A stretch of 64,000 nt of DNA from an uncultured Bacteroidales bacterium (GCA_964404735.1 CAYOLA010000041.1:1310-65309); one strand, 5' to 3'; counted from the stretch's first letter, positions 25-14,424 are shown. Notes: generated by a model not told the origin, from the letters alone. Numbers and translations: made by a program.

Positions 25-261
25 ATGGAAACAAAATTTGATCAAACACTCGACTGCAAGGGGCTGAGTTGCCCGATGCCGATGATGAAGCTTTCGAAAG
101 CCATCAAGGGCATGAACCAGGGTGAAGTACTTGAGATGCTGGGCACTGATCCGGGCACCAAGTCGGACCTGCCTAAATGGTGTGAAAAAACCGGGAACGA
201 GATTCTTCATGAGGAAGCGCTTGACGGTGGAGTTTTCAGGTATTTAATAAAAAAGAACTAG
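25..261 (+). CDS. TusA/SirA-family sulfurtransferase (sulfur carrier protein)
   Basis: 78 aa. LDCKGLSCPMPMMKL carries the Cys-Pro-x-Pro active-site signature of the TusA family. The ORF stops 9 nt before the YeeE-like gene. Confidence 0.9.
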   Translation: METKFDQTLDCKGLSCPMPMMKLSKAIKGMNQGEVLEMLGTDPGTKSDLPKWCEKTGNEILHEEALDGGVFRYLIKKN

Positions 262-270
262 GAGGTCGTG

Positions 271-1485
271 ATGTCTGAAAAGGCTAAAGATCCGGGTATT
301 TTCGGTCAACTCTTCGGAACATTTTTCGCGAAGCACTGGCCCGTATGGGTAGGCGGCATCGTGCTGGGCCTGCTCAACATCCTTTTATTTGCCATTCACA
401 GTCCGTGGGGTGCCAGCGGCGGGATCAACAACTGGGGCGAAAACCTGTTCCAGACTTTTGGTGTTTTTGGGATCAACGGCACTACGCCGGTTTGGCTCAG
501 CCTGTTTGGCATGCTTTGTCTGATGCTGGTGATCGGCTCATTTATGGGAGCCCTGCTTTCAAAGGAATTTGCGCTCAGGGTGCCGCCCAGGGGTGAGATG
601 GTAAAAGGGTTGATTGGCGGCGGCCTGATGGCATTGGGTGCCACCATTGGCCTTGGTTGCACCATCGGCTCATTTTTCAGTGGCGTACCAGCCTTGAGTG
701 GCGGTGCCATCATCTTCACCATTGGCCTTTTTGCCGGTGTGATCATTGCCCTGAAGTACCTGATATGGGAAATGGAAAAACATCCCGGCTTCAGCTCAGG
801 CAAAAGCTACACCTTTTTTGCCGTGAAACCCGGAAAGGGTTCATGGCAGGTTTACCTTGGCTGGTCGGTGCTCGCACTGGTACTGCTCATTGCCTGGCTT
901 TATTCAGGAAGAAACCCTGTAATGACCTGGTTTATTATCATCGGTCTTTTCATGGGGATGATCTCTCAGCGTTCGCGCTTTTGCATTGTCAAGGCCTTCC
1001 GCGATCCATTCATGACCGGCGAATCGGATGGTTCTACGGGTGTAATGGCAGGCCTGATGGTCACCCTGGTTGGCTTCACGGCCATCAAGTTTTTCGGGAT
1101 TGGTTTTGATGACCCCTCCCTGCGCTTGCGGGAGATGACGTGGATATTTCCGCATTTCTGGGGCCGCGCACTCATTGGCGGGCTGATCTTCGGCCTGGGC
1201 ATGACTGTAGCCGGCGGATGTGCTGTCGGAACTTTATGGCGCGTAGGCGAGGGCCAGGTAAAACTCTGGTTTGCAGCACTGGGCTTTATCCTGATATCGC
1301 CGCTGTCGAACAGGTTCATCGTACCGCTGATCAACGACATTTTTCCGCAAAACATGCGTTTCAGGGCATTTCTACCAGACTATATCGGCTATGCCGGCGC
1401 CTTTGCACTGGTGGTAGCCCTTATATTATTATGGTATTGGTTTGTGAAATGGAATGAAAAAACCGGAAGATTTACCGCTTACTAA
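271..1485 (+). CDS. YeeE/YedE-family sulfur (thiosulfate) transport membrane protein
   Basis: About 404-aa polytopic Gly-rich membrane ORF with conserved Cys-containing segments GLGCTIGSF, SRFCIV and AGGCAVGTLW, typical of YeeE/TsuA-type transporters. An SD-like GGAGG lies at 261-265. GTG at 268 is an alternative start. Confidence 0.85.
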   Translation: MSEKAKDPGIFGQLFGTFFAKHWPVWVGGIVLGLLNILLFAIHSPWGASGGINNWGENLFQTFGVFGINGTTPVWLSLFGMLCLMLVIGSFMGALLSKEFALRVPPRGEMVKGLIGGGLMALGATIGLGCTIGSFFSGVPALSGGAIIFTIGLFAGVIIALKYLIWEMEKHPGFSSGKSYTFFAVKPGKGSWQVYLGWSVLALVLLIAWLYSGRNPVMTWFIIIGLFMGMISQRSRFCIVKAFRDPFMTGESDGSTGVMAGLMVTLVGFTAIKFFGIGFDDPSLRLREMTWIFPHFWGRALIGGLIFGLGMTVAGGCAVGTLWRVGEGQVKLWFAALGFILISPLSNRFIVPLINDIFPQNMRFRAFLPDYIGYAGAFALVVALILLWYWFVKWNEKTGRFTAY

Positions 1486-1498
1486 AATCATATCACCC

Positions 1499-1987
1499 AT
1501 GAAAGCAAAAACCTATTATCCAGCAATCATTTTTGCGGTCGCACTGCTCATCTCATCATGCAACGCCATTTATGAAGAAGGCGAAGAGCTTGCAATGGCA
1601 CATCAATCCCTGGTCACTGAAATTACAGCCGACGAGCTGAAGAGCAAGGTCGAAAACGGGGAAAACTTTCTCCTGCTCGACGTACGGCAGTCATCAGAAT
1701 ACGAACAAGCCTCCATCCCGGGCGCGTTGAACATCCCCCGCGGCCTGCTCGAATTCAGGATCCGCGATGATAATTTCTGGGAAGAGGAGTTCATGTACAC
1801 GCCCGAAAATGATGAAGAAATAATTGTTTACTGCAAGCTGGGATACCGTGGCATTTTATCGGCCATGGCACTGCGGCAACTCGGATTCACAAATGTCAGG
1901 AACCTGGCCGGCGGCATCGTCAGCTGGGATCCCGACATTGAACAGGTCACTCCCAAAAACAAAGGCGGCGGCGGATGTGGAGGCTGA
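1499..1987 (+). CDS. Exported single-domain rhodanese lipoprotein with C-terminal GGGGCGG tail
   Basis: Lipobox-like signal peptide (AVALLISSC) if the start is ATG 1499; the track start 1454 would overlap yeeE by 32 nt. The rhodanese fold has active-site loop YCKLGYRG. The protein ends ...KNKGGGGCGG-stop (1964-1984). Confidence 0.85.
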   Translation: MKAKTYYPAIIFAVALLISSCNAIYEEGEELAMAHQSLVTEITADELKSKVENGENFLLLDVRQSSEYEQASIPGALNIPRGLLEFRIRDDNFWEEEFMYTPENDEEIIVYCKLGYRGILSAMALRQLGFTNVRNLAGGIVSWDPDIEQVTPKNKGGGGCGG

Positions 1988-2044
1988 GAAAACTTAAAAA
2001 TGTATCAATCAATATATTCTATTAATAACTAAAACTAAGACGAA

Positions 2045-3013
2045 ATGAAAAAATTTGCAATTTACCTGCTCGCGCTGATGCTGATCCCGGCATTTGTTTT
2101 TACTGCCTGCAAAAAAAGCGATGACGACGAAGAAACCTTCAACGCACAAAAAGCCCTTACCGAATATCTGGTGGCACAGGACATGGACATCAACAAGATC
2201 CTCGAAGGATTTGTGATGATGCCCCCCGACGATGGCAATGTAAGTGACCGTCACGTGATCGATATCCGTTCGGCCGATGACTTTGGCGCCGGACATATTG
2301 AGGGTGCTGTGAATGTTCCTTTAAGCAATATCCTCACCGAGGCAGCCAATGCCACAAAACCCATACTGGTGGCTTGCTACACCGGACAAACAGCCACTTA
2401 TGCCGTTAGTCTGCTGCGCCTTTCGGGTTATGCCGATGCCAAAGCCCTGAAATGGGGAATGAGCTCATGGCATACAGACTTCGCCAACAATGCCAAGGGG
2501 TGGAATGGAAAAACCGGTGACATTGCCGAGGGACACGCCAACTGGACCTACAATGTGGCCCCTGCCAACCTTACCTACAACGCTCCCACGTTTACAAGTA
2601 CCAGCACCGACCCCGCCGAGATCCTTAATGCACGCATACAAACCGTTATTGCCGACGGATTCAAAACCGTTACGCCTGACGACGTACTGGCCAACCCCGG
2701 CGACTTCTTTATCAACAACTACTTTTCGGAAGCCGATTACCTGGGTTTCGGACACATCAACGGTGCCAAAAGGATACAGCCCATGCTTGTTGGCGAAGGA
2801 CAGGTCAACTACAATGATGCATCCACCAAAGTGGTTACCTACTGCTACACCGGGCAAACCTCCGCTGCCATTACCTCCTACATGAGGGTGATCGGTTATG
2901 ATGCCTACAGTATGGTGTTCGGGATGAATAAACTTTATCATTCAAATACCGCATGGGTACAGAATAAATGGGATGCCGCTATTTCGAAGGACCTTCCCTA
3001 TGTGACCAACTAA
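2045..3013 (+). CDS. Tandem-rhodanese lipoprotein (both domains retain the active-site Cys)
   Basis: Signal peptide with lipobox FVFTAC followed by KKSDDDEE. There are two rhodanese domains, each with an identical CYTGQT loop (2375-2392 and 2843-2860). Confidence 0.85.
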   Translation: MKKFAIYLLALMLIPAFVFTACKKSDDDEETFNAQKALTEYLVAQDMDINKILEGFVMMPPDDGNVSDRHVIDIRSADDFGAGHIEGAVNVPLSNILTEAANATKPILVACYTGQTATYAVSLLRLSGYADAKALKWGMSSWHTDFANNAKGWNGKTGDIAEGHANWTYNVAPANLTYNAPTFTSTSTDPAEILNARIQTVIADGFKTVTPDDVLANPGDFFINNYFSEADYLGFGHINGAKRIQPMLVGEGQVNYNDASTKVVTYCYTGQTSAAITSYMRVIGYDAYSMVFGMNKLYHSNTAWVQNKWDAAISKDLPYVTN

Positions 3014-3046
3014 TCAGACAAATATTTAACAACAAAAAGAACAAAA

Positions 3047-4060
3047 ATGAAAAGGTTTTTCATTATCACCTTGTCGGTACTGCTGCTAGCAGGAAACCAC
3101 ACTATAAAGGCCCAGGGGTGCGGCGACGGGCCCTCCGGAGAAGGAGTGGAAGTTTTCGGTTTCCTGCAGGGGCAGTATGAGGCATTGTTTGAAGACGAAA
3201 CCAAGAACAGTTTCACCTTCGAAAGGGCACGAATCGGTGTACAGGGAGCAATCCCCTATGACTTTTCCTATTACGTGGTTGTGGAACTCAGCCCGTTTAT
3301 TTCACCAAATCCCTATCTGCTCGATGCTTTTATCACGTATAGCCGTTTCGACTTTGCCAGGTTATCGGTGGGTTCTTTCAAAACCCCCTTCGGCCTCGAA
3401 GTAAACACCCCCTGCAACGGGATGATGACGGTATACCGTTCAACGGCAACCCTGCAGATGGTAGCTCCATTCAGAGACCTCGGTATGGTATTCATGGGTG
3501 GCAACAAGGACACCTGGTGGCAGTACCAGCTCGGCATCATGAATGGCAGCGGACTTGGCCGTTTCGACAACAACAAAAAGAAGGACATTGTCGGACGCGT
3601 GCTCGTAAAGCCTTTCGATTTCGTACAGGTGGGAGGCAGTTTCCGCTATGGTTATCCTTCCTACAACAACAATAAAGACTCACGCACCACCTACGGAGGC
3701 GAGCTGAAATTCAACTATAAGGGGATTACGCTCATGGGTGAGTACATCATGGACGAAGGCGACTATAACCGCGACCTCGGTGGCGGATGCGGCGGCGAAC
3801 TCCTTGCCCTTGGAAAAGAAAGAAGCGGCGGCTATGTTACGCTGGCATATCTCAGCAAATGGAACATCGAACCGGTGTTTAAATATGATTTCTTCGACTC
3901 GGGCAATGATCAGGATTATACCGAAAGCAATATGACCTTCGGGATAAACTACTATTTCAATGACTGGACCCGTTTGCAGGCCAATTACATTTACCGGGCC
4001 GAAGAACCGACCGACCTCGAAAACGACATGTTTGTCATTCAGGTCCAGGTCAAGTTTTAA
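3047..4060 (+). CDS. Outer-membrane beta-barrel porin (phosphate-selective porin O/P-like)
   Basis: Signal peptide ...HTIKA-QG. The sequence shows alternating amphipathic beta-strand pattern and is rich in aromatics and Gly, with a C-terminal ...VQVQVKF ending in Phe as in OMPs. FTFERARIGVQG resembles the porin O/P family N-terminus. An internal GGGCGG lies at 3779-3796. Confidence 0.7.
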   Translation: MKRFFIITLSVLLLAGNHTIKAQGCGDGPSGEGVEVFGFLQGQYEALFEDETKNSFTFERARIGVQGAIPYDFSYYVVVELSPFISPNPYLLDAFITYSRFDFARLSVGSFKTPFGLEVNTPCNGMMTVYRSTATLQMVAPFRDLGMVFMGGNKDTWWQYQLGIMNGSGLGRFDNNKKKDIVGRVLVKPFDFVQVGGSFRYGYPSYNNNKDSRTTYGGELKFNYKGITLMGEYIMDEGDYNRDLGGGCGGELLALGKERSGGYVTLAYLSKWNIEPVFKYDFFDSGNDQDYTESNMTFGINYYFNDWTRLQANYIYRAEEPTDLENDMFVIQVQVKF

Positions 4061-4072
4061 CCAATAAAAAGA

Positions 4073-4897
4073 ATGACCATGAAGTATCTATTGAAATCTA
4101 TCAGTTTCATCATGCTGGTGCTGCTTGCATCGGGCGTTCATGCGCAGTTCGATATCATTTCCGCCAAGGAAGCATCAAAAATGATCAAAAACGAAGGTGT
4201 GATCGTTGTTTCTACGCGCAATGCCGACGATTATGCAAAAGTCCACATTGATGGCGCCATCAACATCGAAATGAAATCGCTTTACAAGGAAGGCAGCATT
4301 GAGGGTTTGATCAAATCACCCGGGGATCTGACAAAGATCCTTGGAGAGAAAGGACTTGATCCTTCGGCAAGCATTATCATTTACGACAATGGCAAATATG
4401 TTAATGCCGGTTATCTTTACTGGATACTCGATTACCTGGGTTACCAGGATGTAAAGATCCTCGACGGGCATATGAGCGGTTGGCGCAATGCCCGCGGACC
4501 GGTTACCAAAACCCCTTACACCAGGCCGCCACTTGTCGTTACACCGAAGCTAAAACCGGAGATTTACGTCGACTACAACTACGTGAAAGGCAAGCTCAAC
4601 AATCCCGGAACCGTGCTGGTTGATGTACAGAGTCCCAAAGAATTCGGCGAAGGGCATATCAGCGGCGCGATTAATATGGAAAACAAAAACTTCTTTGACG
4701 AAGAAAGCAGCACCTTGAAATCGAAGGAAGAGATCGGAAAAGTGCTGGCCGAACATCAGATCGGCAAAGACAAGGAAGTGATCCTGTACTGCGCTTCCAG
4801 CGCCCGCGCGGGCACTGTTTACCTTGCCATGAAAGCGCTTGGCTACAGCAACCTCAAGCTTTATGAAGGAGGTTACAATGAATGGAAAACCAAATAA
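4073..4897 (+). CDS. Periplasmic two-domain rhodanese (thiosulfate sulfurtransferase-like)
   Basis: Type-I signal peptide (...SGVHA-QF). The N-terminal rhodanese domain lacks the Cys (IIIYDNGKY) and the C-terminal domain has the classical loop YCASSARAG. This is the classical inactive-plus-active tandem architecture. Confidence 0.85.
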   Translation: MTMKYLLKSISFIMLVLLASGVHAQFDIISAKEASKMIKNEGVIVVSTRNADDYAKVHIDGAINIEMKSLYKEGSIEGLIKSPGDLTKILGEKGLDPSASIIIYDNGKYVNAGYLYWILDYLGYQDVKILDGHMSGWRNARGPVTKTPYTRPPLVVTPKLKPEIYVDYNYVKGKLNNPGTVLVDVQSPKEFGEGHISGAINMENKNFFDEESSTLKSKEEIGKVLAEHQIGKDKEVILYCASSARAGTVYLAMKALGYSNLKLYEGGYNEWKTK

Positions 4898-4919
4898 ATT
4901 TAGCTAAACCCCGAAGAAA

Positions 4920-5423
4920 ATGAAAAAACTGAAGTATCTCTTATTTCTGCTTGCCCTGCCGGCATTGATGATCCGTTGCGGAAACAACGGACAGGAAACC
5001 TACGGGTCGGCCGATGAGCTGGTTACAAAGCAAAACAACGGATTTAAATACGTTTCGGCCGAAAAACTTCGGGAACTCATGAATGAACAGCTTCCCGGGA
5101 TTCGTGTGATCGATGTGCGGGAGCCTGAGGAATTTGAAAAAGGACACATTCCGGGAGCTGTTAACATTCCGCGGGGAGTATTGGAGTTCTCTGACCGGAT
5201 CAGCAACAGGCGCGAAAGTATCTTGCTATACTGTGATGATCAAAGCAGGTCGGTTTTGTCGGCCAATGCCCTGAAGATGCTCAAATACCGAAGGCTTGCC
5301 ATCCTTGAGGGTGGATTCGAGAAATGGGTCGGCAATTATCCCGGCATGATCGAGGAAGGCAATGGCGACCCGGTAGCTGAAGCCCCGGTAAAAAAAGAAA
5401 GTTCGGGCGGCTGCGGCGGTTGA
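4920..5423 (+). CDS. Exported single-domain rhodanese with C-terminal GGCGG tail
   Basis: N-terminal signal peptide (possible lipid-modified Cys20). The rhodanese domain (RVIDVREPEEFEKGHIPGAVNIP) has an unusually acidic loop YCDDQSRS. The protein ends ...KKESSGGCGG-stop (5406-5420). Confidence 0.85.
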   Translation: MKKLKYLLFLLALPALMIRCGNNGQETYGSADELVTKQNNGFKYVSAEKLRELMNEQLPGIRVIDVREPEEFEKGHIPGAVNIPRGVLEFSDRISNRRESILLYCDDQSRSVLSANALKMLKYRRLAILEGGFEKWVGNYPGMIEEGNGDPVAEAPVKKESSGGCGG

Positions 5424-5468
5424 TCGCAAAATTACAGAAGTATAAACAATTAAATAACAATTGGAATT

Positions 5469-5885
5469 ATGGCAGAAAAAATGTGTATCGGACTTTTTTC
5501 CGGTGGGGTTGACAAGCTCACTTATGCCGGTGTGGTGATCAGCGGCGCCGCCGCCGACGACATGGAAGTGGAAGTGTTTGTGCACCTTCAGGCCGCACAA
5601 TGGTTTGTAAAAGGCAACGAAAACAGGAAAGAATACCTGAGTGAGTCACCGGATAGCTTTGATGAATTTTCAAAAGCACTTGAAAGCACCAACAGTCCGT
5701 CATGGCTTGAATTTTTTGAAATGGCCAAAGAGATGACGGATGTGAAGGTATATGTATGCAGCCTTGCCGGAAAGATATGGGGCGGCAGCCGGGAAGAGGA
5801 CTTCATCGACATCGTCGACGGCATCATCGGCATCGGCGAATACATTGATGCTGCCAAGGATGCCGATGTACATTTTCTGATTTAA
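5469..5885 (+). CDS. DsrE/DsrF-like family sulfur-relay protein
   Basis: 138 aa with no signal peptide. The N-terminus CIGLFSGGVDKL..A.VISGAAA is of the DsrE-fold type, and a conserved Cys sits in VYVCSLAG. It is positioned between the rhodanese and TusA genes, as in known sulfur-relay clusters. Confidence 0.7.
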   Translation: MAEKMCIGLFSGGVDKLTYAGVVISGAAADDMEVEVFVHLQAAQWFVKGNENRKEYLSESPDSFDEFSKALESTNSPSWLEFFEMAKEMTDVKVYVCSLAGKIWGGSREEDFIDIVDGIIGIGEYIDAAKDADVHFLI

Positions 5886-5922
5886 CATTCACAAATTTTT
5901 AAATTAATAAGGAGAAATAAAA

Positions 5923-6174
5923 ATGACAACAGAAGAACTAAAAGCACTGGAAATAGCCAAGCAGGTTGATGCCAGGGGAACGGCATGTCCGGGTCCGCTG
6001 CTGGCTGCAAAAAAAGCCATCGGAGAGATCGGATCGGGTGATATTATGGAAGTATTATCGGCCGACGCCGGAACGAAAAGAGACATCCCCAAGTGGGCCG
6101 GAAAGAAAGGCCATGAATACCTTGGCGATCTTGAGGAAGACGGCTATTTTAAGTTGTATTTAAAGAAAAACTAG
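5923..6174 (+). CDS. TusA/SirA-family sulfurtransferase (second copy)
   Basis: 83 aa. VDARGTACPGPLLAAKKA carries the Cys-Pro-x-Pro TusA signature. An SD-like AAGGAG lies at 5909-5914. Confidence 0.9.
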   Translation: MTTEELKALEIAKQVDARGTACPGPLLAAKKAIGEIGSGDIMEVLSADAGTKRDIPKWAGKKGHEYLGDLEEDGYFKLYLKKN

Positions 6175-6178
6175 GAAA

Positions 6179-6589
6179 ATGTCAGAATCCAGGCAAAGCA
6201 CTGCTCCGAAGGTTCTGGTATTTTCAACCGAAAAGATCTCAGACCCCGCCATTGACATGGCGGGGCTGTTAAAACTGCATTATCCGCCAACAGTTTACGT
6301 GATCACTGTTCCATGTTCAAGCGCTGTGAAGCCCAAATGGATCATCCGCGCTTTCGAGAAGGGTTACGACGGGGTATTCATTGCCGCCGACGGCACCGAC
6401 TGCCCTTACAGCGAATCCTGTACCGAACGTACTTCCGATGTGATTGCGCAAACACATATCATTATGAAGGAAAAAGGAATAGACCCTTCGAAACTGAAAA
6501 TGGCGGCAATTTGCTCGGTATGCGCCGAACCTTTTGTCAAGCACATGAACAACTTTGTTGATGAGCTTGCCAGTAAAAAGAATAATTAA
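6179..6589 (+). CDS. MvhD/FlpD-like protein (hydrogenase iron-sulfur subunit family), stand-alone
   Basis: 136 aa. YVITVPCSSAVKPKWIIRAFEKGYDGVFIAADGTDCPY matches the core of the methyl-viologen-reducing hydrogenase delta-subunit fold. It lies 23 nt upstream of the HdrA-like genes. Confidence 0.7.
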   Translation: MSESRQSTAPKVLVFSTEKISDPAIDMAGLLKLHYPPTVYVITVPCSSAVKPKWIIRAFEKGYDGVFIAADGTDCPYSESCTERTSDVIAQTHIIMKEKGIDPSKLKMAAICSVCAEPFVKHMNNFVDELASKKNN

Positions 6590-6612
6590 ATCACCATTCC
6601 GAAAATACACCA

Positions 6613-7917
6613 ATGCCAGATACAACCGTAAACAACCATCAGTACGATGCACTCGTTATCGGAGGCGGTATTGCGGGAGAAGAGTCAGCACTGAACCTTG
6701 CCAATATGGGCTACCGTGTCGTGCTGGTGGAAAAAGACCTTTCGCTGGGCGGTAAGATGATACATCTCAGCAAGGTATTCCCCACCCTCGACTGTTCAGC
6801 CTGCATTACCACACCAAAAGTTTCAGAAACCGCCAGACATCCCAACATAAGGATATACACATACAGCGAGGTAAAAGACATCAGGAAAAACGGCAACGGC
6901 CATTTTACGGCCGATATTCACAAAAAACCGCGCTACGTTATCGAGGATGAATGCACGGGTTGTGAGGCCTGTGAAAAGGTTTGCCCGGTAATTGTGGAAG
7001 ACCAGTATCAGTATGACCTGGTTGGACGCAAAGCGGCTTATATTCCCTTCAGCATTGCCAATCCGAGGATTGCAGCCATCGACATTGAGAACTGCATCCT
7101 TTGCGGAGCCTGTGAAAAGGCCTGCATGGCCGAAGCCATTGATTTCGCGCAAAAGCCGGAAACGATACCCATCACCTTTAAGGCTGTGATCGTTGCTACA
7201 GGATATAACCTGGTTGAGGCCGGCAAACTGCCAAACTATGGCTTCGACCAATATAAAAACGTGGTAACGGCCATGCAAATGGAACGGCAACTGGTTCCCA
7301 CACGGCCCTTTAACACGGTTTTACGGCCCAAAGACGGGAAGATGCCCGACAATATTGCCTACGTGCTGTGCGCCGGATCGAGGGATGCCACCATCGGCAA
7401 TCCCATTTGCTCGCAGATCTGTTGTATGTATTCCATTAAGCAGGCCCAGTTGCTCATGGGAGCACTGCCAATGGCCGATGTTACCATATATTATTTACAC
7501 ATCAGGGCATTTGGCAAGGGTTTTAATGAATTTTACCAGCAGGCCCGCGGCATGGGTGTTGAATTTGTAAAAGGGAAGATTGCCAAAATCACCGAAAAGG
7601 AAAACGGGAACCTGATCCTCCGCTACGAGGATGTTTACAGCGGAAAAGTGAGCGAAGCCGAACACGACCTCGTGGTTTTGTCGACCGGCATCCTGCCGGG
7701 TGATGGCATTACAAATCTGTTTTCCGGTGAAAAACCGGAAACCGATGCCTTTGATTACGTAAAACAAGTGGATGAACTGGAAAACCCCTCACGGACGAGT
7801 ATACCCGGTGTTTTTGTAGCCGGCACGGCCGCGGGGCCAATGGACATCCCCGACTCCATCCTTTCCGCCGGGGCAGCCTCATCCGAAACAGCCAGTTATA
7901 TCAGGAACATGTCATGA
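6613..7917 (+). CDS. HdrA-family FAD/FeS flavoprotein, QmoA-like (CoB-CoM heterodisulfide reductase subunit A family)
   Basis: 434 aa. Features are the FAD dinucleotide motif ALVIGGGIAGEESA, FPTLDCSACI, an inserted 2x[4Fe-4S] ferredoxin (CTGCEACEKVCP and CILCGACEKAC) and CSQICC. Size and architecture match QmoA. The stop overlaps the next start (ATGA at 7914-7917). Confidence 0.8.
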   Translation: MPDTTVNNHQYDALVIGGGIAGEESALNLANMGYRVVLVEKDLSLGGKMIHLSKVFPTLDCSACITTPKVSETARHPNIRIYTYSEVKDIRKNGNGHFTADIHKKPRYVIEDECTGCEACEKVCPVIVEDQYQYDLVGRKAAYIPFSIANPRIAAIDIENCILCGACEKACMAEAIDFAQKPETIPITFKAVIVATGYNLVEAGKLPNYGFDQYKNVVTAMQMERQLVPTRPFNTVLRPKDGKMPDNIAYVLCAGSRDATIGNPICSQICCMYSIKQAQLLMGALPMADVTIYYLHIRAFGKGFNEFYQQARGMGVEFVKGKIAKITEKENGNLILRYEDVYSGKVSEAEHDLVVLSTGILPGDGITNLFSGEKPETDAFDYVKQVDELENPSRTSIPGVFVAGTAAGPMDIPDSILSAGAASSETASYIRNMS

Positions 7918-9839
7918 AACAAAAAATAGGAGTATATATTTGTCACTGCGGGTCGAACATCTCCGACCACATCGATGTAGAAAAGGTAAAGCAAAGTGTG
8001 GAAAAGCAGGAAGGCGTGTATGTGGCAGGCACCACCATGTTTGCCTGTTCCGACTCCGCCCAGAAAGACATCGAGGACGACATCAAAACCAAGGGGCTCG
8101 ATGCCATCGTAATCGCTTCATGTTCCCCGAAGCTGCATCTGCAAACCTTCAGGAATGTAGCCATTCGCGGCGGGTTAAACCCATACAACTATGTACAGGT
8201 AAATATCCGTGAACAGGGTTCGTGGGCCCATGGCGACAAGCCCGTGGAGGCAACCGAAAAGGCGATCCAGCTTGTGAAGGCGGGTATTGCCAGGGTAGCA
8301 GAGTCGAGCGAACTGGAAGCCGTGAAGATCCCTGCCGAAAACAAGGTAGCCGTTATTGGTGCAGGCGTGGCCGGGCTCAGGGCCGCCATCGAACTGGCCA
8401 ATATGGGCACCGAAGTGATCCTGGTCGAAAAGGAACATTTTATCGGCGGAAGGACTTCCCAGTGGGGCCAGCTCTTTACCTCAGAGCAAACAGGGGAGGA
8501 AATCGTGAGCAAAATGTTTGCCAAAGTCATGGCGCATCCAAAAATCACCCTGTACACCGGCACCACGGTAACGGGGAAGTCGGGCGGCGTTGGCAATTAC
8601 AAACTTCAACTAACGCTTAGCCCGCGCTTCATCACTCAAAAATGCGACCCCGAAGGATTCGACCGGGCCATTGAGGTTTGTCCGGTAGAAGTGGAAGACG
8701 AATTCAGCTTCGGACTTGGCAAGCGAAAGGCCATCTATAAAAATTATTCTTCTGAGTTTCCGCAGTTCCCTGCCATCGACAACGCAAACTGCACCCGATG
8801 CGGAAAGTGCCTTGAAGTTTGCAACAATATCGACCTTGAGCAGCAGGAGGAAAAGCTAGTGATCGAAGTCGGATCCATACTCCTGTGCACCGGCTTCGAC
8901 CCTTATGAGCCTCAGGAAGGCGAGTATGGTTACAAGACCATCGACTCCGTCATAACCTTGCCGCAATTCAAACGGCTGATCGCCACACAGCAGGAAAAGC
9001 TCGTATACAACGGCAATGAAATAAAAACCGCAGGGTTTATCTATTGTGTCGGGAGCATGCAAATAAATGGTGAAAACAAATATTGTTCCCGGTTTTGCTG
9101 CACCTCGGCCATTCATGCCGCCCTGGAAGTGAATCAGCATTTCGGCATAAAATCCTATCACCTGAACAGGGGGATACGCACCTACGGCAAACAGGAGATG
9201 CTGTATACACAATCATCGCTCAACGGCGACGTCTACATCGCCTTCGACCCGGAGGAGGAGCCCGTGATCAGCAAAAACGGAAAGGGAACCATGATCAAGG
9301 TAACCGACCTGCTCACTGCCGGCGAAGAACTTGACATACCCGTCGACCTGGTTGTGCTGGTTACGGGAATGGTTCCGCGTGCGGATCAGTCGATCGCGGA
9401 AATCCTGAAAGTTCCCGTAGGGCGTGATAAATTCTTCAACGAAATACATCCAAAACTGCGACCGGTAGAAACCGTTATCGACGGGGTGCAGATCGCCGGA
9501 GCATGCCAGTCGCCGAAAAATATTACCGAATCACTGAAATCATCGCTATCGGCTGCATCAAAGGCAAATTCCCTGGTAAGCAAGGGAGAGATCGAACTGG
9601 AACCCACCCTGGCCATGATACACAAAAATGTATGTACCTGGTGCGGAAAATGTGAGGAAGTATGCCCGTTTGGAGCCATTTTGAAACTTGATAATGATGG
9701 CAGGGAAGTTGCCGAGGTGAACAAGGCAAACTGTAAAGGTTGCGGCATTTGCCTGCCGGTTTGCCCTGTCGACGCCATTGACCTGATCGGCTACACCAAC
9801 CGGGAGATCGAAAGCATGATCGACGCACTGGTGGAATAA
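7914..9839 (+). CDS. HdrA-family FAD/FeS flavoprotein, QmoB-like but lacking the fused MvhD domain
   Basis: 641 aa. The N-terminal domain is HdrA/QmoB-type (IGVYICHCGSNISDHI...ASCSPKLH). It also has FAD motif VAVIGAGVAGLRAA, CSRFCC, and a C-terminal 2x[4Fe-4S] ferredoxin (CTWCGKCEEVCP and CKGCGICLPVCP). Confidence 0.8.
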   Translation: MKQKIGVYICHCGSNISDHIDVEKVKQSVEKQEGVYVAGTTMFACSDSAQKDIEDDIKTKGLDAIVIASCSPKLHLQTFRNVAIRGGLNPYNYVQVNIREQGSWAHGDKPVEATEKAIQLVKAGIARVAESSELEAVKIPAENKVAVIGAGVAGLRAAIELANMGTEVILVEKEHFIGGRTSQWGQLFTSEQTGEEIVSKMFAKVMAHPKITLYTGTTVTGKSGGVGNYKLQLTLSPRFITQKCDPEGFDRAIEVCPVEVEDEFSFGLGKRKAIYKNYSSEFPQFPAIDNANCTRCGKCLEVCNNIDLEQQEEKLVIEVGSILLCTGFDPYEPQEGEYGYKTIDSVITLPQFKRLIATQQEKLVYNGNEIKTAGFIYCVGSMQINGENKYCSRFCCTSAIHAALEVNQHFGIKSYHLNRGIRTYGKQEMLYTQSSLNGDVYIAFDPEEEPVISKNGKGTMIKVTDLLTAGEELDIPVDLVVLVTGMVPRADQSIAEILKVPVGRDKFFNEIHPKLRPVETVIDGVQIAGACQSPKNITESLKSSLSAASKANSLVSKGEIELEPTLAMIHKNVCTWCGKCEEVCPFGAILKLDNDGREVAEVNKANCKGCGICLPVCPVDAIDLIGYTNREIESMIDALVE

Positions 9840-9863
9840 TAAACAAAGCAAAAAAAACTGCAT

Positions 9864-10166
9864 ATGACCACTGCAAAAAAAAATACGATCAAGATCATCA
9901 AGGAACAACGCACAGTGAGCGAACAGGCCAAAGAAAGAAGAAAGACATACGCCGACATCCGGAAGCAATTGCTGAAGGCACTGGAAGAGAGGCCAATGAC
10001 CATCCCGGAACTGGCAGGAGAAACAGGCCTTTCCGCTCATGAGGTTACCTATTACCTTATGACACTTCGCAAATACGGAGAGGTGGTCACCGGCGAAGTT
10101 GATGATGATGACGAATACTATTATTACGAACTCAAAAACAAGCAATTGAATAATGGCAAAGATTAA
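9864..10166 (+). CDS. Small winged-helix-like protein with acidic/Tyr-rich tail (unknown function)
   Basis: 100 aa. A basic N-terminus is followed by RPMTIPELAGETGLSAHEVTYYLMTLRKYGEV (helix-turn-helix-like) and then DDDDEYYYYE (10101-10130). Its last 14 nt overlap the start of the QmoC-like gene. Confidence 0.5.
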   Translation: MTTAKKNTIKIIKEQRTVSEQAKERRKTYADIRKQLLKALEERPMTIPELAGETGLSAHEVTYYLMTLRKYGEVVTGEVDDDDEYYYYELKNKQLNNGKD

Positions 10167-11217
10167 TCCTGAATTTTTACCGGAATTAAAAAAATACGGC
10201 GGCATCGACTTCAGTGCGTGTTATAATTGCGGCAACTGCACGGCCATTTGTTCCCTGTCGACCAAAGACCATTCATTCCCCCGCATGATGGTAAGGGCAA
10301 GCGTTGTGGGGCTCGAAGACAAGGTAAGCAGCTCACTCGATCCATGGCTTTGCTATTATTGCGGTGATTGCAGCACTTATTGTCCGCGCGAAGCCAACCC
10401 CGGTGAACTCATGATGGCCCTGCGCCGCTGGCTCACGGCAAAGTACGACTGGACCGGCTTATCTGGCCTGCTGTACAAATACCTGCCGCTGACCATATTT
10501 GCCTTTGTTGCCACGGCACTGGCAGTGATCGGCATTGCTGCCGTTTATGATTTCAACATGGCTGAGATCATGCATTTCGGGCATCAGTTTGAATTCATTG
10601 CCATACTTGCCGTGTTTGCCATCATCCTACTGCCCAACATTGCACGGATGTGGTACTTTTTGATATACAAGCCCAGGAGGAAGGTTCCGGCCTCAAGCTA
10701 TCTGAAAAGCTTCGGGGCACTCTTCGTCCACATGTTCACACAAAAGAGGACCCTTGGCTGCGACGACAGCCGGCTGCGATGGTTTGAGCACCTGGTGCTG
10801 GTGATCGGCTACCTTACCCTTTTGTTCACCACAGTGGTGCTCGACTGGTTCCGCTCAGACAAGCTGTTTGTCATCATCCTCGGCTATGTGGTGAGTGCGG
10901 TTGTTTTTACCGTAACCTTCGATTTTGTAAAGGGGAGGATAAAAAGAAAAAGTGAGATCAGCAAACACTCCAGGCCTTCCGACTGGTTATTTGTCATATG
11001 GTTGTTCCTGCTGGGTGTTACGGCTTTCTTCACCCGCGTGTTCATTGACCTGGGCATATTGCATGCGCATTTCTGGATGTATCTTTTCCATATGATCATT
11101 TTGGTGCAATGGGCTGTATTGATCGTTCCTTTCGGGAAATGGACGCACTTCCTTTACAGGTCGTTTGCCATGTACTTCGAAGAGGTGCTGCAGCCTAAAG
11201 CTGTTGCAAAAAAGTAA
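10153..11217 (+). CDS. QmoC/HdrE-DsrM-like membrane subunit (N-terminal 2x[4Fe-4S] domain plus heme-b type membrane domain)
   Basis: 354 aa. CYNCGNCTAIC and CYYCGDCSTYCP form an HdrC-like dicluster domain. About 6 hydrophobic helices follow, with His residues placed as in NarI/HdrE-type cytochrome b. Confidence 0.75.
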   Translation: MAKINPEFLPELKKYGGIDFSACYNCGNCTAICSLSTKDHSFPRMMVRASVVGLEDKVSSSLDPWLCYYCGDCSTYCPREANPGELMMALRRWLTAKYDWTGLSGLLYKYLPLTIFAFVATALAVIGIAAVYDFNMAEIMHFGHQFEFIAILAVFAIILLPNIARMWYFLIYKPRRKVPASSYLKSFGALFVHMFTQKRTLGCDDSRLRWFEHLVLVIGYLTLLFTTVVLDWFRSDKLFVIILGYVVSAVVFTVTFDFVKGRIKRKSEISKHSRPSDWLFVIWLFLLGVTAFFTRVFIDLGILHAHFWMYLFHMIILVQWAVLIVPFGKWTHFLYRSFAMYFEEVLQPKAVAKK

Positions 11218-11341: not shown

Positions 11342-13651
11342 ATGAAACTGCTGTACCTCTTATCGGTCCTTTTCGGGCTGGCCATTGCCGCGCCCTTTGT
11401 GAACCTGCACCTTCGCAGGTACAGCGGTTGGATACTGTCGGTTGTGCCCCTGCTCATTTTTGCCTATTTCATCACCCTGTTGCCTGATATTTCAGCGGGT
11501 GCCGTCATTATCGAAAAGTACAGCTGGATATTCTATCCGGATATCAGCCTGAGTTTCCGGCTCGATGGACTCAGCATGCTTTTCGCCCTGTTGGTGACCG
11601 GTATTGGCGGGCTTATTTTAATCTATGCAGGTTATTATATGCGTTCCTATGAGAAGACAAGCCGTTTTTTTGGTTACCTCGTCTTTTTCATGGCCGCCAT
11701 GCTGGGCCTGGTCCTTTCATCCAACCTCATCTGCCTTTTTGTCTTCTGGGAGCTCACCAGCATCAGTTCTTTTCTTTTGATCGGTTTCAAGTACGAAAAG
11801 GCGGCGGCAAGGGAAGCGGCCTTGCAGGCCCTGCTCATCACAGGCTTTGGAGGACTGGCGCTGCTGGCCGGTTTTGTTCTTTTATCCATTCCCTACGGTT
11901 CCTTCGAGCTGGAGGTGATCATGTCGAACCCACAGGTGCTGGCCAACAGTGACCTCTTTGTGCCGGTGCTGATCCTGATCCTGATCGGTGCTTTCACCAA
12001 ATCTGCCATCTTCCCCTTCCACTTCTGGCTACCCGGCGCCATGCAGGCCCCATCCCCGGTAAGTGCCTTCCTGCACTCAGCTACCATGGTGAAGGCCGGC
12101 ATATTCCTGCTTGCACGTTTGAATCCGCTCATGGACAGCTCAGAATTATGGTTCTATACCCTTTCGGTATTCGGTGCTGTTACCATGTTTGCCGGGGCCT
12201 GGCTTTCGATCTCACAAAACGATATCAAGAAGGTGCTTGCCTACACCACTGTCAGTGCCCTGGGCACCCTGGTATTGCTGATCGGTACAAACACCACCTA
12301 CTCCATGAAAGCCTTCATCATCTTTCTACTGGTGCACGCCCTTTACAAGGCCACCCTGTTCATGATGGCGGGCAATATCGAAAAAAAGACCGGCACCCGC
12401 GATATCAGGCAACTGGGACAGTTGCACCGATACATGCCGGTGGCTGCCCTGATCATGATCCTGGCGCTGCTGTCGATGGCCGGACTGCCACCCATGCTGG
12501 GCTTTATCGGAAAGGAACTCATATATGAAGCGAAGATCAATGCCCCGGGCGCTGCAAACATTGTTTTGTTGCTGGGCTTTTTTGCAAACATATTTATGGT
12601 TTTTGTATCGGTAAGGCTGGCCATTGATGTTTTTTGGGGCAAGAATGCCGTTTATGCCAGGAAACCTTACGAACCCGACATCTCGCTGCTCACCGGCCCG
12701 GCCGTACTGGTATTTCTGAGCCTCTTCCTGGGTCTTTTCCCCGACCTCATCGAAAACAGCCTTGCCACACCTGCCGTGCTGGCCATCAGCCCCGAAGCGG
12801 GTTCGGTCGACCTCAGAATATGGCATGGCTTCAACCTTGTATTGCTTTTGAGCGCATTCACCATCGCTATCGGCGTATTGCTCTATATTTATAAAGAATG
12901 GACACTGGCACTGGCAGGATACATCACACTTCGTTATTTCCGGACCCGGCTGTCGAAGGGATTCTTCAATATGATCAGGGGATTTATCTCCCTGACGAAG
13001 AAAAAGACCAGCTTTATTCAACATGGTTATCACCGTTTTTATCTGATGACCATTTTTATTGCTACCTCCATCCTGGTATGGTACATGCTGCTGCGTATTC
13101 CCTTCCATGATTTCCGGCATGAATCCCTTCAGGCGGTACCGTTCTTTTATTTTGCCATTGCAGGTCTTATTATCATTGCTGCAATTTTCACAGTCACGGC
13201 CCGTTCGCGGCTGATCGCACTGATCTCCATCGGCCTGGTCAGTTTCGGAATTTCAGTGATCTTTATCACCTTCAGCGGTGTTGACCTGGCCATTACCATG
13301 ATCATGGTTGAAACGCTGATGGTAATTCTGGGTGCGATGGTGGTATATCATCTGCCCAAATATTTGAACTTTTCAAAAAGGGGAAGCCGGGTGCGCGATG
13401 GCCTGGTTGCCCTTGTTTTCGGCGGATTCATGACACTGCTGGTGATCAAGGCAGGTGGTGTGGCGCCTGATGACAAGATCTCGGATTTTTTCAGTTCGAA
13501 CAGTTACGGACTGGCTTACGGTAAAAACATTGTTAATGTTATACTGGTTGATTTCAGGGCACTCGATACCATGGGAGAGATTTTGGTACTTTCTCTGGCG
13601 GCCATTGGCATATATGCATTATTAAAGGTAAAACTTAAACCGGGCGAATAG
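11342..13651 (+). CDS. mrpA: Na+/H+ (monovalent cation/H+) antiporter subunit A, Mrp/Mnh type
   Basis: 769-aa polytopic protein. FHFWLPGAMQAPSPVSAFLHSATMVKAG is a NuoL/MrpA-type motif, and the C-terminal extension is typical of MrpA. Confidence 0.9.
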   Translation: MKLLYLLSVLFGLAIAAPFVNLHLRRYSGWILSVVPLLIFAYFITLLPDISAGAVIIEKYSWIFYPDISLSFRLDGLSMLFALLVTGIGGLILIYAGYYMRSYEKTSRFFGYLVFFMAAMLGLVLSSNLICLFVFWELTSISSFLLIGFKYEKAAAREAALQALLITGFGGLALLAGFVLLSIPYGSFELEVIMSNPQVLANSDLFVPVLILILIGAFTKSAIFPFHFWLPGAMQAPSPVSAFLHSATMVKAGIFLLARLNPLMDSSELWFYTLSVFGAVTMFAGAWLSISQNDIKKVLAYTTVSALGTLVLLIGTNTTYSMKAFIIFLLVHALYKATLFMMAGNIEKKTGTRDIRQLGQLHRYMPVAALIMILALLSMAGLPPMLGFIGKELIYEAKINAPGAANIVLLLGFFANIFMVFVSVRLAIDVFWGKNAVYARKPYEPDISLLTGPAVLVFLSLFLGLFPDLIENSLATPAVLAISPEAGSVDLRIWHGFNLVLLLSAFTIAIGVLLYIYKEWTLALAGYITLRYFRTRLSKGFFNMIRGFISLTKKKTSFIQHGYHRFYLMTIFIATSILVWYMLLRIPFHDFRHESLQAVPFFYFAIAGLIIIAAIFTVTARSRLIALISIGLVSFGISVIFITFSGVDLAITMIMVETLMVILGAMVVYHLPKYLNFSKRGSRVRDGLVALVFGGFMTLLVIKAGGVAPDDKISDFFSSNSYGLAYGKNIVNVILVDFRALDTMGEILVLSLAAIGIYALLKVKLKPGE

Positions 13652-13652
13652 G

Positions 13653-14072
13653 ATGCGTTCAGAGATACTTAAAATAGCGGCCATTCACTTAAAGTACGTA
13701 TTGCTTGTGCTGAGCCTGATCGTGCTGGTCAGGGGGCATAATCATCCCGGGGGCGGTTTTATTGGGGGATTGCTGGCAGGATCCGCCTTTGTGCTTTACG
13801 GAATGGCCTTCGGTGCTGAACAGGCAAAGAAGCAAAGGCTTGTAAAGCCATTTTTCAGCATTGCCCTGGGTCTTTTACTCAGCCTGGGCAGCGGTCTGAT
13901 CTCCCTTATTTATAAGCCGGCCGCTTTCCTGCAGGGTGTTTGGGTAACGGTGCCCCTGCCATGGCAGGCATCGCTAAAGCTGGGGACGCCACTGCTTTTC
14001 GATGCAGGGATATTCCTTGTGGTGGCGGGAATGCTGGTATTGGTCATGCTTTCAATCATGGAGGAAGGATAA
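13653..14072 (+). CDS. mrpB: Na+/H+ antiporter subunit B
   Basis: 139 aa with 4 TM helices. It carries the RGHNHPGGGFIGGL motif of MnhB. Confidence 0.85.
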   Translation: MRSEILKIAAIHLKYVLLVLSLIVLVRGHNHPGGGFIGGLLAGSAFVLYGMAFGAEQAKKQRLVKPFFSIALGLLLSLGSGLISLIYKPAAFLQGVWVTVPLPWQASLKLGTPLLFDAGIFLVVAGMLVLVMLSIMEEG

Positions 14073-14073
14073 T

Positions 14074-14424
14074 ATGCTGACGTTGCTTGCTGTGATCATC
14101 GGTTTTCTGTATGCCGCGAGCATATACATGTTCCTGAGAAGGAGCATCGTAAAGCTGGTGCTTGGCATCATCTTCCTCAGCCATGCCACCAACCTGCTGC
14201 TGTTCGTAACGGGAGGGCTGCGCATTGGCCAGCCGGCATTTACGGATGCAGATGGTACGGTCGACCTTGCCACCATCTCCGACCCGCTTCCACAGGCACT
14301 CATACTCACGGCCATCGTCATTGGCCTGGGCATCACTGCTTTTTCCCTCGTGCTGGTATATCGTTTTTACAAGGAAACAGGCACTGTCGACCTCGACGAG
14401 CTTGCCGAAAATGATCAGTCATGA
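14074..14424 (+). CDS. mrpC: Na+/H+ antiporter subunit C (NuoK-like)
   Basis: ATG at 14074 lies directly after the mrpB stop. The product is a 116-aa, 3-TM, NuoK-like protein. The longer track ORF starting at 14002 overlaps mrpB and is an artefactual extension. Confidence 0.85.
   Translation: MLTLLAVIIGFLYAASIYMFLRRSIVKLVLGIIFLSHATNLLLFVTGGLRIGQPAFTDADGTVDLATISDPLPQALILTAIVIGLGITAFSLVLVYRFYKETGTVDLDELAENDQS

Follow-up and report, generated by a model that had tools for sequence, protein, structure and literature searches.

Two exported rhodanese-family proteins, which we call RhdA and RhdB, are encoded in one operon within a 64,000-nucleotide (nt) stretch of DNA from an uncultured Bacteroidales bacterium (GCA_964404735.1 CAYOLA010000041.1:1310-65309; hereafter the window, with positions counted from its first letter), and both end in a glycine-flanked cysteine that is retained throughout their families at the tip of a divergent and apparently flexible linker. 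In three relatives of RhdA the codon for this cysteine is TGA, and the same exchange is seen at a third Gly-flanked cysteine, in a porin encoded between the two rhodaneses, from which we conclude, on the sequence context, that cysteine and selenocysteine (Sec) are exchangeable at these positions. We incline to the view, without holding it firmly, that each tail is a mobile arm that carries persulfide and belongs to a relay that would move sulfur, as elemental sulfur (S0) or polysulfide, across the cell envelope. The rhodanese superfamily and the arm of the sulfur carrier SoxY are each known; it is the combination of a rhodanese with a SoxY-type arm that is new, and in the open-access literature searched we found neither rhodaneses with arms of this kind described, nor this operon, nor the Cys/Sec triad of the porin.

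An earlier note on this DNA, made from the sequence alone, had described two open reading frames (ORFs; 1499-1987 and 4920-5423) that end in GGCGG, each with an export signal, one rhodanese domain and an active-site loop Cys, and all of these features are confirmed in the sequence. RhdA has 162 residues from the ATG at 1499 and ends ...KNKGGGGCGG, with codons 1964-1984 specifying GGGGCGG, the tail cysteine Cys160 encoded by TGT at 1976-1978 and a TGA stop codon at 1985-1987. An alternative start at 1454 was rejected because it overlaps the end of yeeE and because the orthologs, of 161-162 residues, start at the equivalent of 1499. RhdB has 167 residues and ends ...KKESSGGCGG, with codons 5406-5420 for GGCGG, Cys165 encoded by TGC at 5412-5414 and the stop at 5421-5423. 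Each protein has a single match to Pfam Rhodanese (PF00581; E = 1e-21 for RhdA and 1.9e-20 for RhdB), with the catalytic loop reading YCKLGYRG in RhdA (Cys112, TGC 1832-1834) and YCDDQSRS in RhdB (Cys105, TGT 5232-5234). The signal peptide of RhdA, MKAKTYYPAIIFAVALLISS before the lipid Cys, ends with a normal lipobox (LISS, then C), and that of RhdB, MKKLKYLLFLLALPALMIR before its Cys, ends MIR, then C, the Arg at -1 being atypical for a lipobox; in RhdB orthologs this position is occupied by S, G, A, N or Q. On these signals both proteins would be anchored in a membrane. Foldseek and phmmer match the fold to 6mxv, TSTD1 and the rhodanese domains of MOCS3/Uba4, and the best-scoring matches of the RhdA and RhdB domains are the rhodanese domains of MoeB/MoeZ, MOCS3 and Uba4, whose natural acceptors are the flexible Gly-Gly carboxy termini of carrier proteins; we regard this resemblance as a lead and not as a test. 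A separate feature of RhdA is that residues 22-29 (1562-1585), directly after the lipid Cys, follow a pattern, C-x-[AG]-I-Y-E-[DN]-G, that is conserved in the orthologs far more strongly than lipoprotein tethers usually are; it could serve for docking.

Protein-database searches returned 20 close relatives of RhdA and about 25 of RhdB, and a scan of GTDB with one genome per species, using the RhdA alignment as query, returned 239 relatives, of which the best 80 loci were examined. All 80 are from metagenome-assembled genomes (MAGs) of the Fibrobacteres-Chlorobi-Bacteroidetes (FCB) group, comprising Bacteroidota (Bacteroidales, Marinilabiliales, Lentimicrobiaceae, Paludibacter and Tenuifilaceae) together with Cloacimonadota, Marinimicrobia, Delongbacteria, Calditrichota, Zixibacteria and Chlorobiota. 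Among the distinct sequences compared, the tail Cys is present in 76 of the 82 RhdA-type proteins (in one as GGCGGSI), three more have TGA at this position and three are without a tail Cys; it is present in 46 of the 48 RhdB-type proteins, the other two being cut by contig ends. The lipobox Cys of the RhdA type is similarly well kept (81 of 82). The RhdA-type endings are GGCGG (35), GGC (14), GGCG (9), SGCGG (7), GGCGD (3), AGCGG (3), GGCGE (2) and a few others, and those of the RhdB type are GGCGG (31), GGCGD (5), SGCGG (3), GGCG (3) and a few others. In the close relatives from the database searches a Gly-flanked terminal Cys is found in every complete RhdA or RhdB relative, most commonly as GGCGD, with GGCGG, GGCGE, GGCG and SGCG also represented. 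The pentapeptide to which the earlier note had drawn attention is therefore conserved as a Gly-flanked terminal Cys but not as a strict GGCGG, since the endings vary; the conserved element, as these alignments define it, is Gly-Gly-Cys at or next to the carboxy terminus (G-G-C-G-[G/D/E], GGCG or GGC).

The linker between the last rhodanese helix and the tail Cys shows the opposite behaviour, as its sequence is poorly conserved and rich in G, E, P, D, S, A and K while its length is stable, with a median of 16 residues in RhdA and 28 in RhdB. An AlphaFold2 model of RhdA has a core (residues 30-145) with predicted local distance difference test (pLDDT) values above 94 and a tail (residues 146-162) with pLDDT of about 50 and no secondary structure, and in none of the solved structures matched is the tail covered, all alignments stopping at about residue 145. 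Because the Cys is near-invariant, the linker divergent and the tail predicted to be disordered, we describe the tail as a conserved flexible arm with one conserved functional atom.

It could be supposed that the endings have no function and are either low-complexity sequence due to chance or artefacts that arose in annotating a G+C-rich stretch. Gly-rich low-complexity tails are common, and RhdA and RhdB are paralogous, so that two occurrences are not independent. The expected frequency of GGCGG per carboxy terminus is nonetheless about 3e-7 (fG^4 x fC, a rough estimate), and it is the conservation, more than the composition, that excludes a chance origin: the tail Cys is kept in about 130 RhdA and RhdB sequences at identities down to roughly 30-40% while the linker residues vary, TGA replaces precisely the tail Cys codon, and the motif recurs in an unrelated fold, that of the porin. 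The suggestion that the tails are not accidental thus stands, as does the expectation that orthologs would share them, and a chance reading, to which we give hardly any credence, is effectively refuted by the conservation data.

The likeness to SoxY lies in a GGCGG at the extreme carboxy terminus of a periplasmic protein, as in the window's RhdA and RhdB; in SoxY the arm is attached directly to the SoxY domain, whereas in RhdA and RhdB it sits on a disordered linker of 16-28 residues and its last residue may be G, D, E or absent. The Cys of the SoxY arm carries all sulfur intermediates on a swinging arm (PMC6067878), and by analogy RhdA and RhdB may work in the same way. The relation does not extend beyond the motif, however, in that no SoxY Pfam or NCBIfam model matches RhdA or RhdB at E <= 0.01 and only rhodanese models do, so that the two proteins are, by these matches, members of the rhodanese superfamily and not of the SoxY family, and the shared GGCGG is best described as a short convergent motif. 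Nor are SoxZ, SoxAX, SoxB or SoxCD encoded in the 14-gene operon or in the 80 related loci. RhdA further differs in having a catalytic rhodanese Cys in the same chain. The bacteria that encode these proteins are anaerobes of the FCB group, in which sulfur would probably be reduced and not oxidized. To judge from these comparisons, the SoxY solution of a Gly-flanked terminal Cys arose independently on a rhodanese scaffold.

The earlier note had treated the motif as a property of the two rhodanese paralogs, but a third copy, with the same Cys/TGA behaviour, is present in the OprO/P-type porin encoded between them. This family has exactly three cysteines. Cys25 (3119-3121) lies two to three residues after the predicted signal-peptidase site (..A, then QGC..), Cys123 (3413-3415) is part of N-T-x-C, and Cys248 (TGC, 3788-3790) is part of DLGGGCGGELL, for which the family motif is GG-C-[GDSA]-[GDS]. 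Cys25 and Cys123 are present in 65/65 porins and Cys248 in 56/65, the other nine having an in-frame TGA; the top 120 database homologs have the same three cysteines, two incomplete sequences aside. The AlphaFold2 model (pLDDT 86.6) has 16 strands, and the nearest solved structures found by Foldseek are Omp32, OprP, OprO and OmpF, at template-modelling (TM) scores of 0.6-0.72. In the model Cys248 lies in a long low-confidence loop, L6, between strands 11 and 12, which by porin convention is predicted to be extracellular; Cys123 is placed in loop L3, which bears a helix and in classical porins forms the constriction, and Cys25 in a disordered periplasmic amino-terminal extension.

In three RhdA genes (loci L080, L081 and L082) the tail Cys codon is TGA, and the sequences ...GG-TGA-GGT-TAG, ...GG-TGA-GGC-GGG-TAG and ...GG-TGA-GAT-TAG, respectively, would on readthrough give GG-U-G, GG-U-GG and GG-U-D, each followed by a TAG stop. 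Nine porin genes in eight loci (L034, L041, L044, L075, L076 with two, L080, L081 and L082) have TGA exactly at the L6 Cys codon and about 95 conserved codons beyond it, up to the ...LQ(V/A)KF end; an interpretation of these genes as pseudogenes or truncations was rejected, the frame being open and conserved to the canonical carboxy-terminal Phe. In the window itself both positions are Cys codons. We looked downstream for hairpins resembling a selenocysteine insertion sequence (SECIS), using criteria taken from a description of bacterial SECIS elements quoted in PMC13188914: a stem of at least 5 base pairs with at least two G-C pairs, and an apical loop of 3-8 nt that has a G among its first two nucleotides and starts 16-37 nt downstream of the UGA. 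Seven of the nine TGA porins have such a hairpin, against nine of the 54 with Cys (Fisher p = 5.5e-4), and so do all three TGA-containing RhdA tails, where the loop starts 19-24 nt after the UGA. The MvhD-like genes of L075, L076 and L081 (Cloacimonadota and Delongbacteria loci; frames starting at about 3531 in L075, 2605 in L076, and 1136 and 4666 in L081) also have an in-frame TGA, within G-x-x-V-x-G-U-HPGDCH, which is probably a selenocysteine site and is consistent, as indirect evidence, with the use of Sec by these organisms. A different kind of TGA, aligned with conserved Gly positions (for example ETLDCK-TGA-LSCPMP) in L039 (TusA1, at about 8487, and YeeE, at about 8757) and in L005 (YeeE, 1089-2300), was not taken for recoding; these codons are probably G-to-T assembly or sequencing errors, and the copy of the L005 gene in L004, from the Joint Genome Institute (JGI), encodes an intact product of 403 residues. 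That two such codons occur in adjacent genes of one MAG (L039) is odd.

Sec is costly, and in reviewed families it is almost always found at reactive sites (PMC13188914). Because the Gly-flanked Cys of the RhdA tail and of porin loop L6 appears to be exchanged with Sec, we take this as strong indirect evidence that both do chemistry, and as an argument for a chemically active arm that is independent of the others and derives from sequence only. Five forms of rhodanese selenoprotein are known, all with Sec in the active-site loop (UxxS, UxxG, CxU, UxxxxU), and the predicted outer-membrane selenoproteins are an MtrB/PioB-type beta-barrel and a TonB-dependent receptor; neither a Porin_O_P-family selenoprotein nor a GG-U-GG motif is listed in this 2026 review of selenoproteomes (PMC13188914). 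The proteins described here share the rhodanese fold with the known rhodanese selenoproteins but would have their Sec at the carboxy terminus, and, if the predictions are true, they would constitute a new selenoprotein form and a Porin_O_P-family porin would join the predicted outer-membrane selenoproteins.

The exchange also bears on what kind of chemistry, if any, should be considered. One might regard the terminal Cys as structural, forming an intermolecular disulfide tether to the porin (for example to Cys25) or serving as a sorting or processing signal, and it is true that conserved porin cysteines are available as partners and that the proteins are co-encoded and probably form a complex. 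We nevertheless consider this very unlikely: for a residue that is only structural there would be little reason to use Sec, with the SECIS and special machinery that it needs; RhdA retains its tail whether the partner is YeeE or an octaheme cytochrome; and in hosts that are anaerobes of sulfidic settings periplasmic disulfides are unlikely to be stable. Another parallel is mammalian thioredoxin reductase, whose flexible carboxy-terminal Gly-Cys-Sec-Gly arm moves back and forth, as a redox element, between external substrates and a buried active site. The Gly-flanked terminal Cys/Sec arm (GG-U-G, GG-U-GG or GG-U-D) resembles it, but with a single chalcogen in place of the adjacent Cys-Sec pair, no flavin/NADPH domain, and a periplasmic location. 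The tail Cys or Sec might, then, be a redox or resolving residue that cleaves the rhodanese persulfide or a di- or polysulfide of a partner, setting sulfide free or restoring the active site, so that the arm would transfer electrons or resolve intermediates and not ferry sulfur. The two cysteines of RhdA could form a transient di- or trisulfide, and the residue that in some lineages apparently stands in for the tail Cys, Sec, is one typically found where redox chemistry takes place (PMC13188914). This seems to us rather unlikely, however, in that the conserved operon has no thioredoxin-fold or DsbD-type gene and no periplasmic reductant is obvious, and RhdB usually has no second conserved Cys in its loop; the distinction from a carrier is in any case partly semantic, since persulfide transfer is a thiol/persulfide exchange.

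RhdA and RhdB differ in their catalytic loops. The proposal that one protein would join a catalytic and a carrier Cys is borne out by RhdA, of which 76/82 sequences have the loop Cys and equally many the tail Cys, but not by RhdB, where the loop position (n = 48) is C in 15, G in 15, S in 11, N in three, A in two and D in two. Because the loop Cys is found in only 15/48, most RhdB orthologs are predicted to be catalytically inactive, and RhdB is best seen as mainly a rhodanese-fold scaffold for the arm, and RhdA as a catalytic Cys plus an arm. The acidic loop to which the earlier note had called attention (YCDDQSRS) is present in the window's RhdB but is a peculiarity of this ortholog and no family trait. 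A further variation in RhdB concerns the DVRE motif (Val66 in the window, at about 5115-5117), which in 36/48 RhdB relatives reads D-C-R-E, adding a Cys near the active-site region; this Cys is no simple compensation for the lost loop Cys.

Our preferred reading of the tails as persulfide carriers can be set out as a relay through the other products of the operon (Table 1). Rhd2L, as a surface lipoprotein, and the Cys or Sec of porin loop L6 would attack S8 or polysulfide, and the sulfur would pass to Cys123 in L3, to the amino-terminal Cys25 and so to the periplasm, where Rhd2P and RhdA would load arms that reach into partners. The loop Cys of RhdA would load its own arm (or the reverse), which would insert into YeeE or, in a sister subfamily, into a periplasmic octaheme reductase, and RhdB, usually lacking a loop Cys, would be a pure carrier loaded by others. 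From the three cysteines of YeeE the sulfur would move to the cytoplasmic carriers TusA1, DsrE and TusA2, and sulfide would finally be formed from the persulfide by an HdrA/MvhD/QmoC-like complex with a link to the quinone pool. A hand-off from SoxY Cys to the three cysteines of the YeeE-like SoxT has been proposed (PMC11582611); this is the nearest precedent for the final step in the periplasm and makes a hand-off from the RhdA arm to YeeE a reasonable analogy. The operon shares with YeeE/TsuA-YeeD/TsuB and with SoxT a transporter of the same family, three channel cysteines and an adjacent TusA-like partner; those known systems are without an arm-fused periplasmic rhodanese donor or a cognate porin, and the YeeE protein here is longer (405 residues) and below the TsuA and YedE cut-offs. 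That sulfur would be the cargo, that it would be handed on in this order and that the flow would be reductive is what we infer from these parts taken together. The more ambitious version, in which a covalent bucket brigade would carry zero-valent sulfur across the whole envelope, from the L6 Cys/Sec through L3 and the amino-terminal Cys to the rhodanese arms and the Cys ladder of YeeE, we put forward only tentatively, as something that may well prove wrong.

Several points count against the relay as drawn. Porin Cys25 and Cys123 could be a mere structural disulfide. Two of the nine TGA porins lack a hairpin under the strict criteria, and plain minimum free energy (MFE) of the 63 nt after the Cys/TGA codon does not separate TGA from Cys genes (Mann-Whitney p = 0.61). 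Lipidation of the window's RhdB is uncertain given the Arg in its lipobox, and the co-occurrence of a periplasmic RhdB with cytoplasmic DsrE-TusA2 is unexplained in the proposed scheme. The redox module can be called only 'Qmo/Hdr-like', all of its assignments being below curated cut-offs, on the strength of a similar domain content (FAD, Fe-S, MvhD and a membrane Fe-S subunit). Finally, among NCBIfam models YeeE scores best with a YedE model associated with selenium (135 bits, the cut-off being 350), and ExtI, a porin to which ours is distantly similar, was first linked to selenite uptake, the extI mutant being defective in selenite and tellurite reduction (PMC5877670).

The last two of these points raise the prospect that the cargo is not sulfur but selenium, taken from selenite or Se0 to selenide, or some other chalcogen or a metalloid, with the arms carrying a selenotrisulfide or perselenide to YedE-type transporters. 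It gains from the matches of YeeE to the YedE/FdhT model and of TusA1 and TusA2 to YedF, all below cut-off, from the similarity of the porin and rhodaneses to ExtI and ExtH of a 'selenite/tellurite reduction operon', and from a report, listed among the references of PMC5877670, that rhodanese can carry selenium. That similarity is itself distant: the porin scores 38.1 bits against ExtI (NF040900, cut-off 150) and Rhd2P 48.9 bits against ExtH (NF040901, cut-off 200), so that the equivalog level is not reached, and although these are the only specific NCBIfam matches for the two proteins, they lie far below cut-off and make them at most distant relatives. In Geobacter, extH, for a rhodanese lipoprotein, and extI precede extKL (PMC5877670, PMC13510729), and ExtKL is MccSep, a polysulfide reductase selenoprotein that is essential for S0 respiration and prefers polysulfide over selenite (PMC13510729). 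The likeness is in a rhodanese lipoprotein gene that stands beside an OprO/P-like porin gene and is linked to a chalcogen reductase, but the acceptor here would be YeeE with the Hdr/Qmo-like module, or in sister loci an octaheme cytochrome of the Otr family, and not the pentaheme MccSep. Fourteen genes, with two TusA proteins, DsrE, four rhodaneses and a quinone-linked Hdr/Qmo-like complex, fit a dissimilatory flux and not the supply of a trace element; most of the carriers use Cys, and many of the hosts may not use selenium; and the sister clusters encode a cytochrome of the tetrathionate reductase family. On balance we find a selenium or metalloid cargo improbable and keep to sulfur.

The passage of insoluble S0 or polysulfide through the outer membrane has yet to be explained. 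The authors of the 2026 study of MccSep describe the way by which sulfur gets across this membrane as unknown (PMC13510729), the true membrane proteins involved were described in a 2023 paper as not experimentally confirmed (PMC10045233), and an old hypothesis holds that outer-membrane thiols activate elemental sulfur (PMC3440390, PMC10045233). The locus offers candidates that can be mutated, namely three porin cysteines, two carrier arms, four rhodaneses and YeeE in one compact operon, and the porin, if the relay through it is real, would be the activator of elemental sulfur that has long been postulated as an 'outer-membrane thiol protein'. The operon has a wide distribution among anaerobes of the Bacteroidota and related phyla that live in sediments, digesters and sulfidic waters. 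Confirmation would add two types of selenoprotein, and abundant lineages without cultured members would gain a new route by which to respire sulfur or to ferment with its help.

The tail also occurs away from YeeE. An RhdA subfamily ending ...GGEVGGC or ...DDGGGC is found in loci without an adjacent YeeE, in the order octaheme cytochrome c, cytochrome b, RhdA, Rhd2L, porin, Rhd2P (L062, 7162-13679; and L086, 6094-11878, from the cultured Carboxylicivirga marina, behind a Crp-family regulator). The octaheme cytochrome belongs by its match to TIGR04315 (573 bits, cut-off 375) to the tetrathionate reductase family, and the cytochrome b resembles PhsC. These gene orders suggest that the outer-membrane module and a tailed RhdA can feed either YeeE or a periplasmic reductase of sulfur compounds with S-S bonds. 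Beyond these loci, a search of 1.84 billion representatives with a combined RhdA+RhdB profile gave 443 clusters at E <= 1e-30, a figure for the size of the family; its top 150 matches are dominated by multi-domain rhodanese repeats, whose scores are additive, and it is not a clean census of tails outside the FCB group. It nonetheless revealed other tailed architectures (profile-search proteins P0290, P0276, P0301, P0345 and P0329), including a natural RhdA-RhdB fusion of 312 residues that ends ...EEVGGCG, a triple rhodanese that ends ...SSGGCGG, and tandem rhodanese lipoproteins that end ...STGGCG, ...DDEGCG and ...VEEGC. Because it is found on fusion, tandem and triple rhodaneses, the arm appears to be a portable module. 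Separately, unlinked rhodanese genes near the operon in L001 (20027-20485, minus strand, ending ...VEGGC) and L020 (18094-18702, minus strand, ending ...IAGGC) encode proteins without a loop Cys (LLFSGREAQS in L001), which suggests that they are further tail-only carriers.

Table 1. Genes and modules of the operon in the window, with the matches on which each assignment is based.
Feature	Coordinates	Strand	Evidence
TusA1, TusA-like sulfur carrier	25-261	+	Pfam TusA E = 3.5e-25
YeeE/YedE-family inner-membrane sulfur transporter, 405 aa	268-1485	+	Pfam Sulf_transp E = 9.5e-51
RhdA, lipoprotein single-domain rhodanese, C-terminal arm GGGGCGG	1499-1987	+	Pfam Rhodanese, conservation counts, AlphaFold2
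Rhd2L, two-domain rhodanese lipoprotein	2045-3013	+	Pfam Rhodanese x2
16-stranded OprO/P-type porin, three conserved Cys	3047-4060	+	Pfam Porin_O_P, AlphaFold2, Foldseek
Rhd2P, periplasmic two-domain rhodanese, inactive N-domain, C-domain loop CASSARAG	4073-4897	+	Pfam Rhodanese x2 E = 1.7e-39
RhdB, lipoprotein-type rhodanese scaffold, C-terminal arm SSGGCGG	4920-5423	+	Pfam Rhodanese, conservation counts
DsrE-like cytoplasmic sulfurtransferase	5469-5885	+	Pfam DsrE/DrsE_2; Cys97 in 51/51
TusA2, second TusA-like carrier	5923-6174	+	Pfam TusA E = 2e-21; Cys22 in 39/39
Cytoplasmic/membrane redox module	6179-11217	+	Pfam FlpD, Pyr_redox_2, Fer4, HTH_5; syntenic in most loci
MvhD-like protein	6179-6589	+	Part of redox module
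Two HdrA/QmoA/B-like flavoproteins	6613-7917, 7914-9839	+	NCBIfam HdrA2 460 and 568 bits vs cut-off 1100
Small winged-helix ORF, 100 aa, ArsR-type	9864-10166	+	HTH_5 E = 1.3e-5
QmoC-like membrane Fe-S protein	10153-11217	+	NCBIfam qmoC 149 bits vs cut-off 300

The operon extends from 25 to 11217 and comprises 14 genes with intergenic gaps of at most 57 nt, and known or candidate sulfur-binding cysteines are conserved in every component, including YeeE, the TusA and DsrE proteins and the other rhodaneses. TusA1, whose Cys24 is present in 57/57 relatives and whose gene lies upstream of yeeE in nearly all loci, is likely to be the cytoplasmic partner of YeeE; Cys131, Cys239 and Cys318 of YeeE are invariant in 63/63. 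Rhd2L has loop cysteines in both domains (Cys111 in 64/66 and Cys267 in 66/66), and Rhd2P, whose signal peptide ends VHA, before QFD, has Cys240 in 60/61. Rhd2L also has an acidic stretch after its lipid Cys, CKKSDDDEE in the window and C-K-(K/D)-D-D-D-D in the family, the mean number of D/E residues at +2 to +7 being 3.0 in Rhd2L, 1.4 in RhdA and 0.9 in RhdB. Because such a stretch matches the lipoprotein export signal of Bacteroidota, Rhd2L is likely to be surface-exposed.

Comparison of the 80 loci shows that the operon is built of three modules, TusA1-YeeE-RhdA, Rhd2L-porin-Rhd2P and RhdB-DsrE-TusA2-Mvh/Hdr/Qmo-like. RhdA is immediately after YeeE in most loci, the Rhd2L-porin-Rhd2P module moves and inverts as a unit, and the RhdB-DsrE-TusA2 part is missing in Cloacimonadota, Marinimicrobia and Delongbacteria. 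Within the third module, the small winged-helix ORF, which may encode a regulator or a subunit of the complex, follows the second HdrA-like gene and overlaps the start of the QmoC-like gene; it is syntenic in most loci. Directly after the operon, at 11342-15899, the window has genes of an Mrp/Mbh-type antiporter (Proton_antipo_M, MbhD and MbhE); this is not so in L001, and these genes are probably outside the conserved system.

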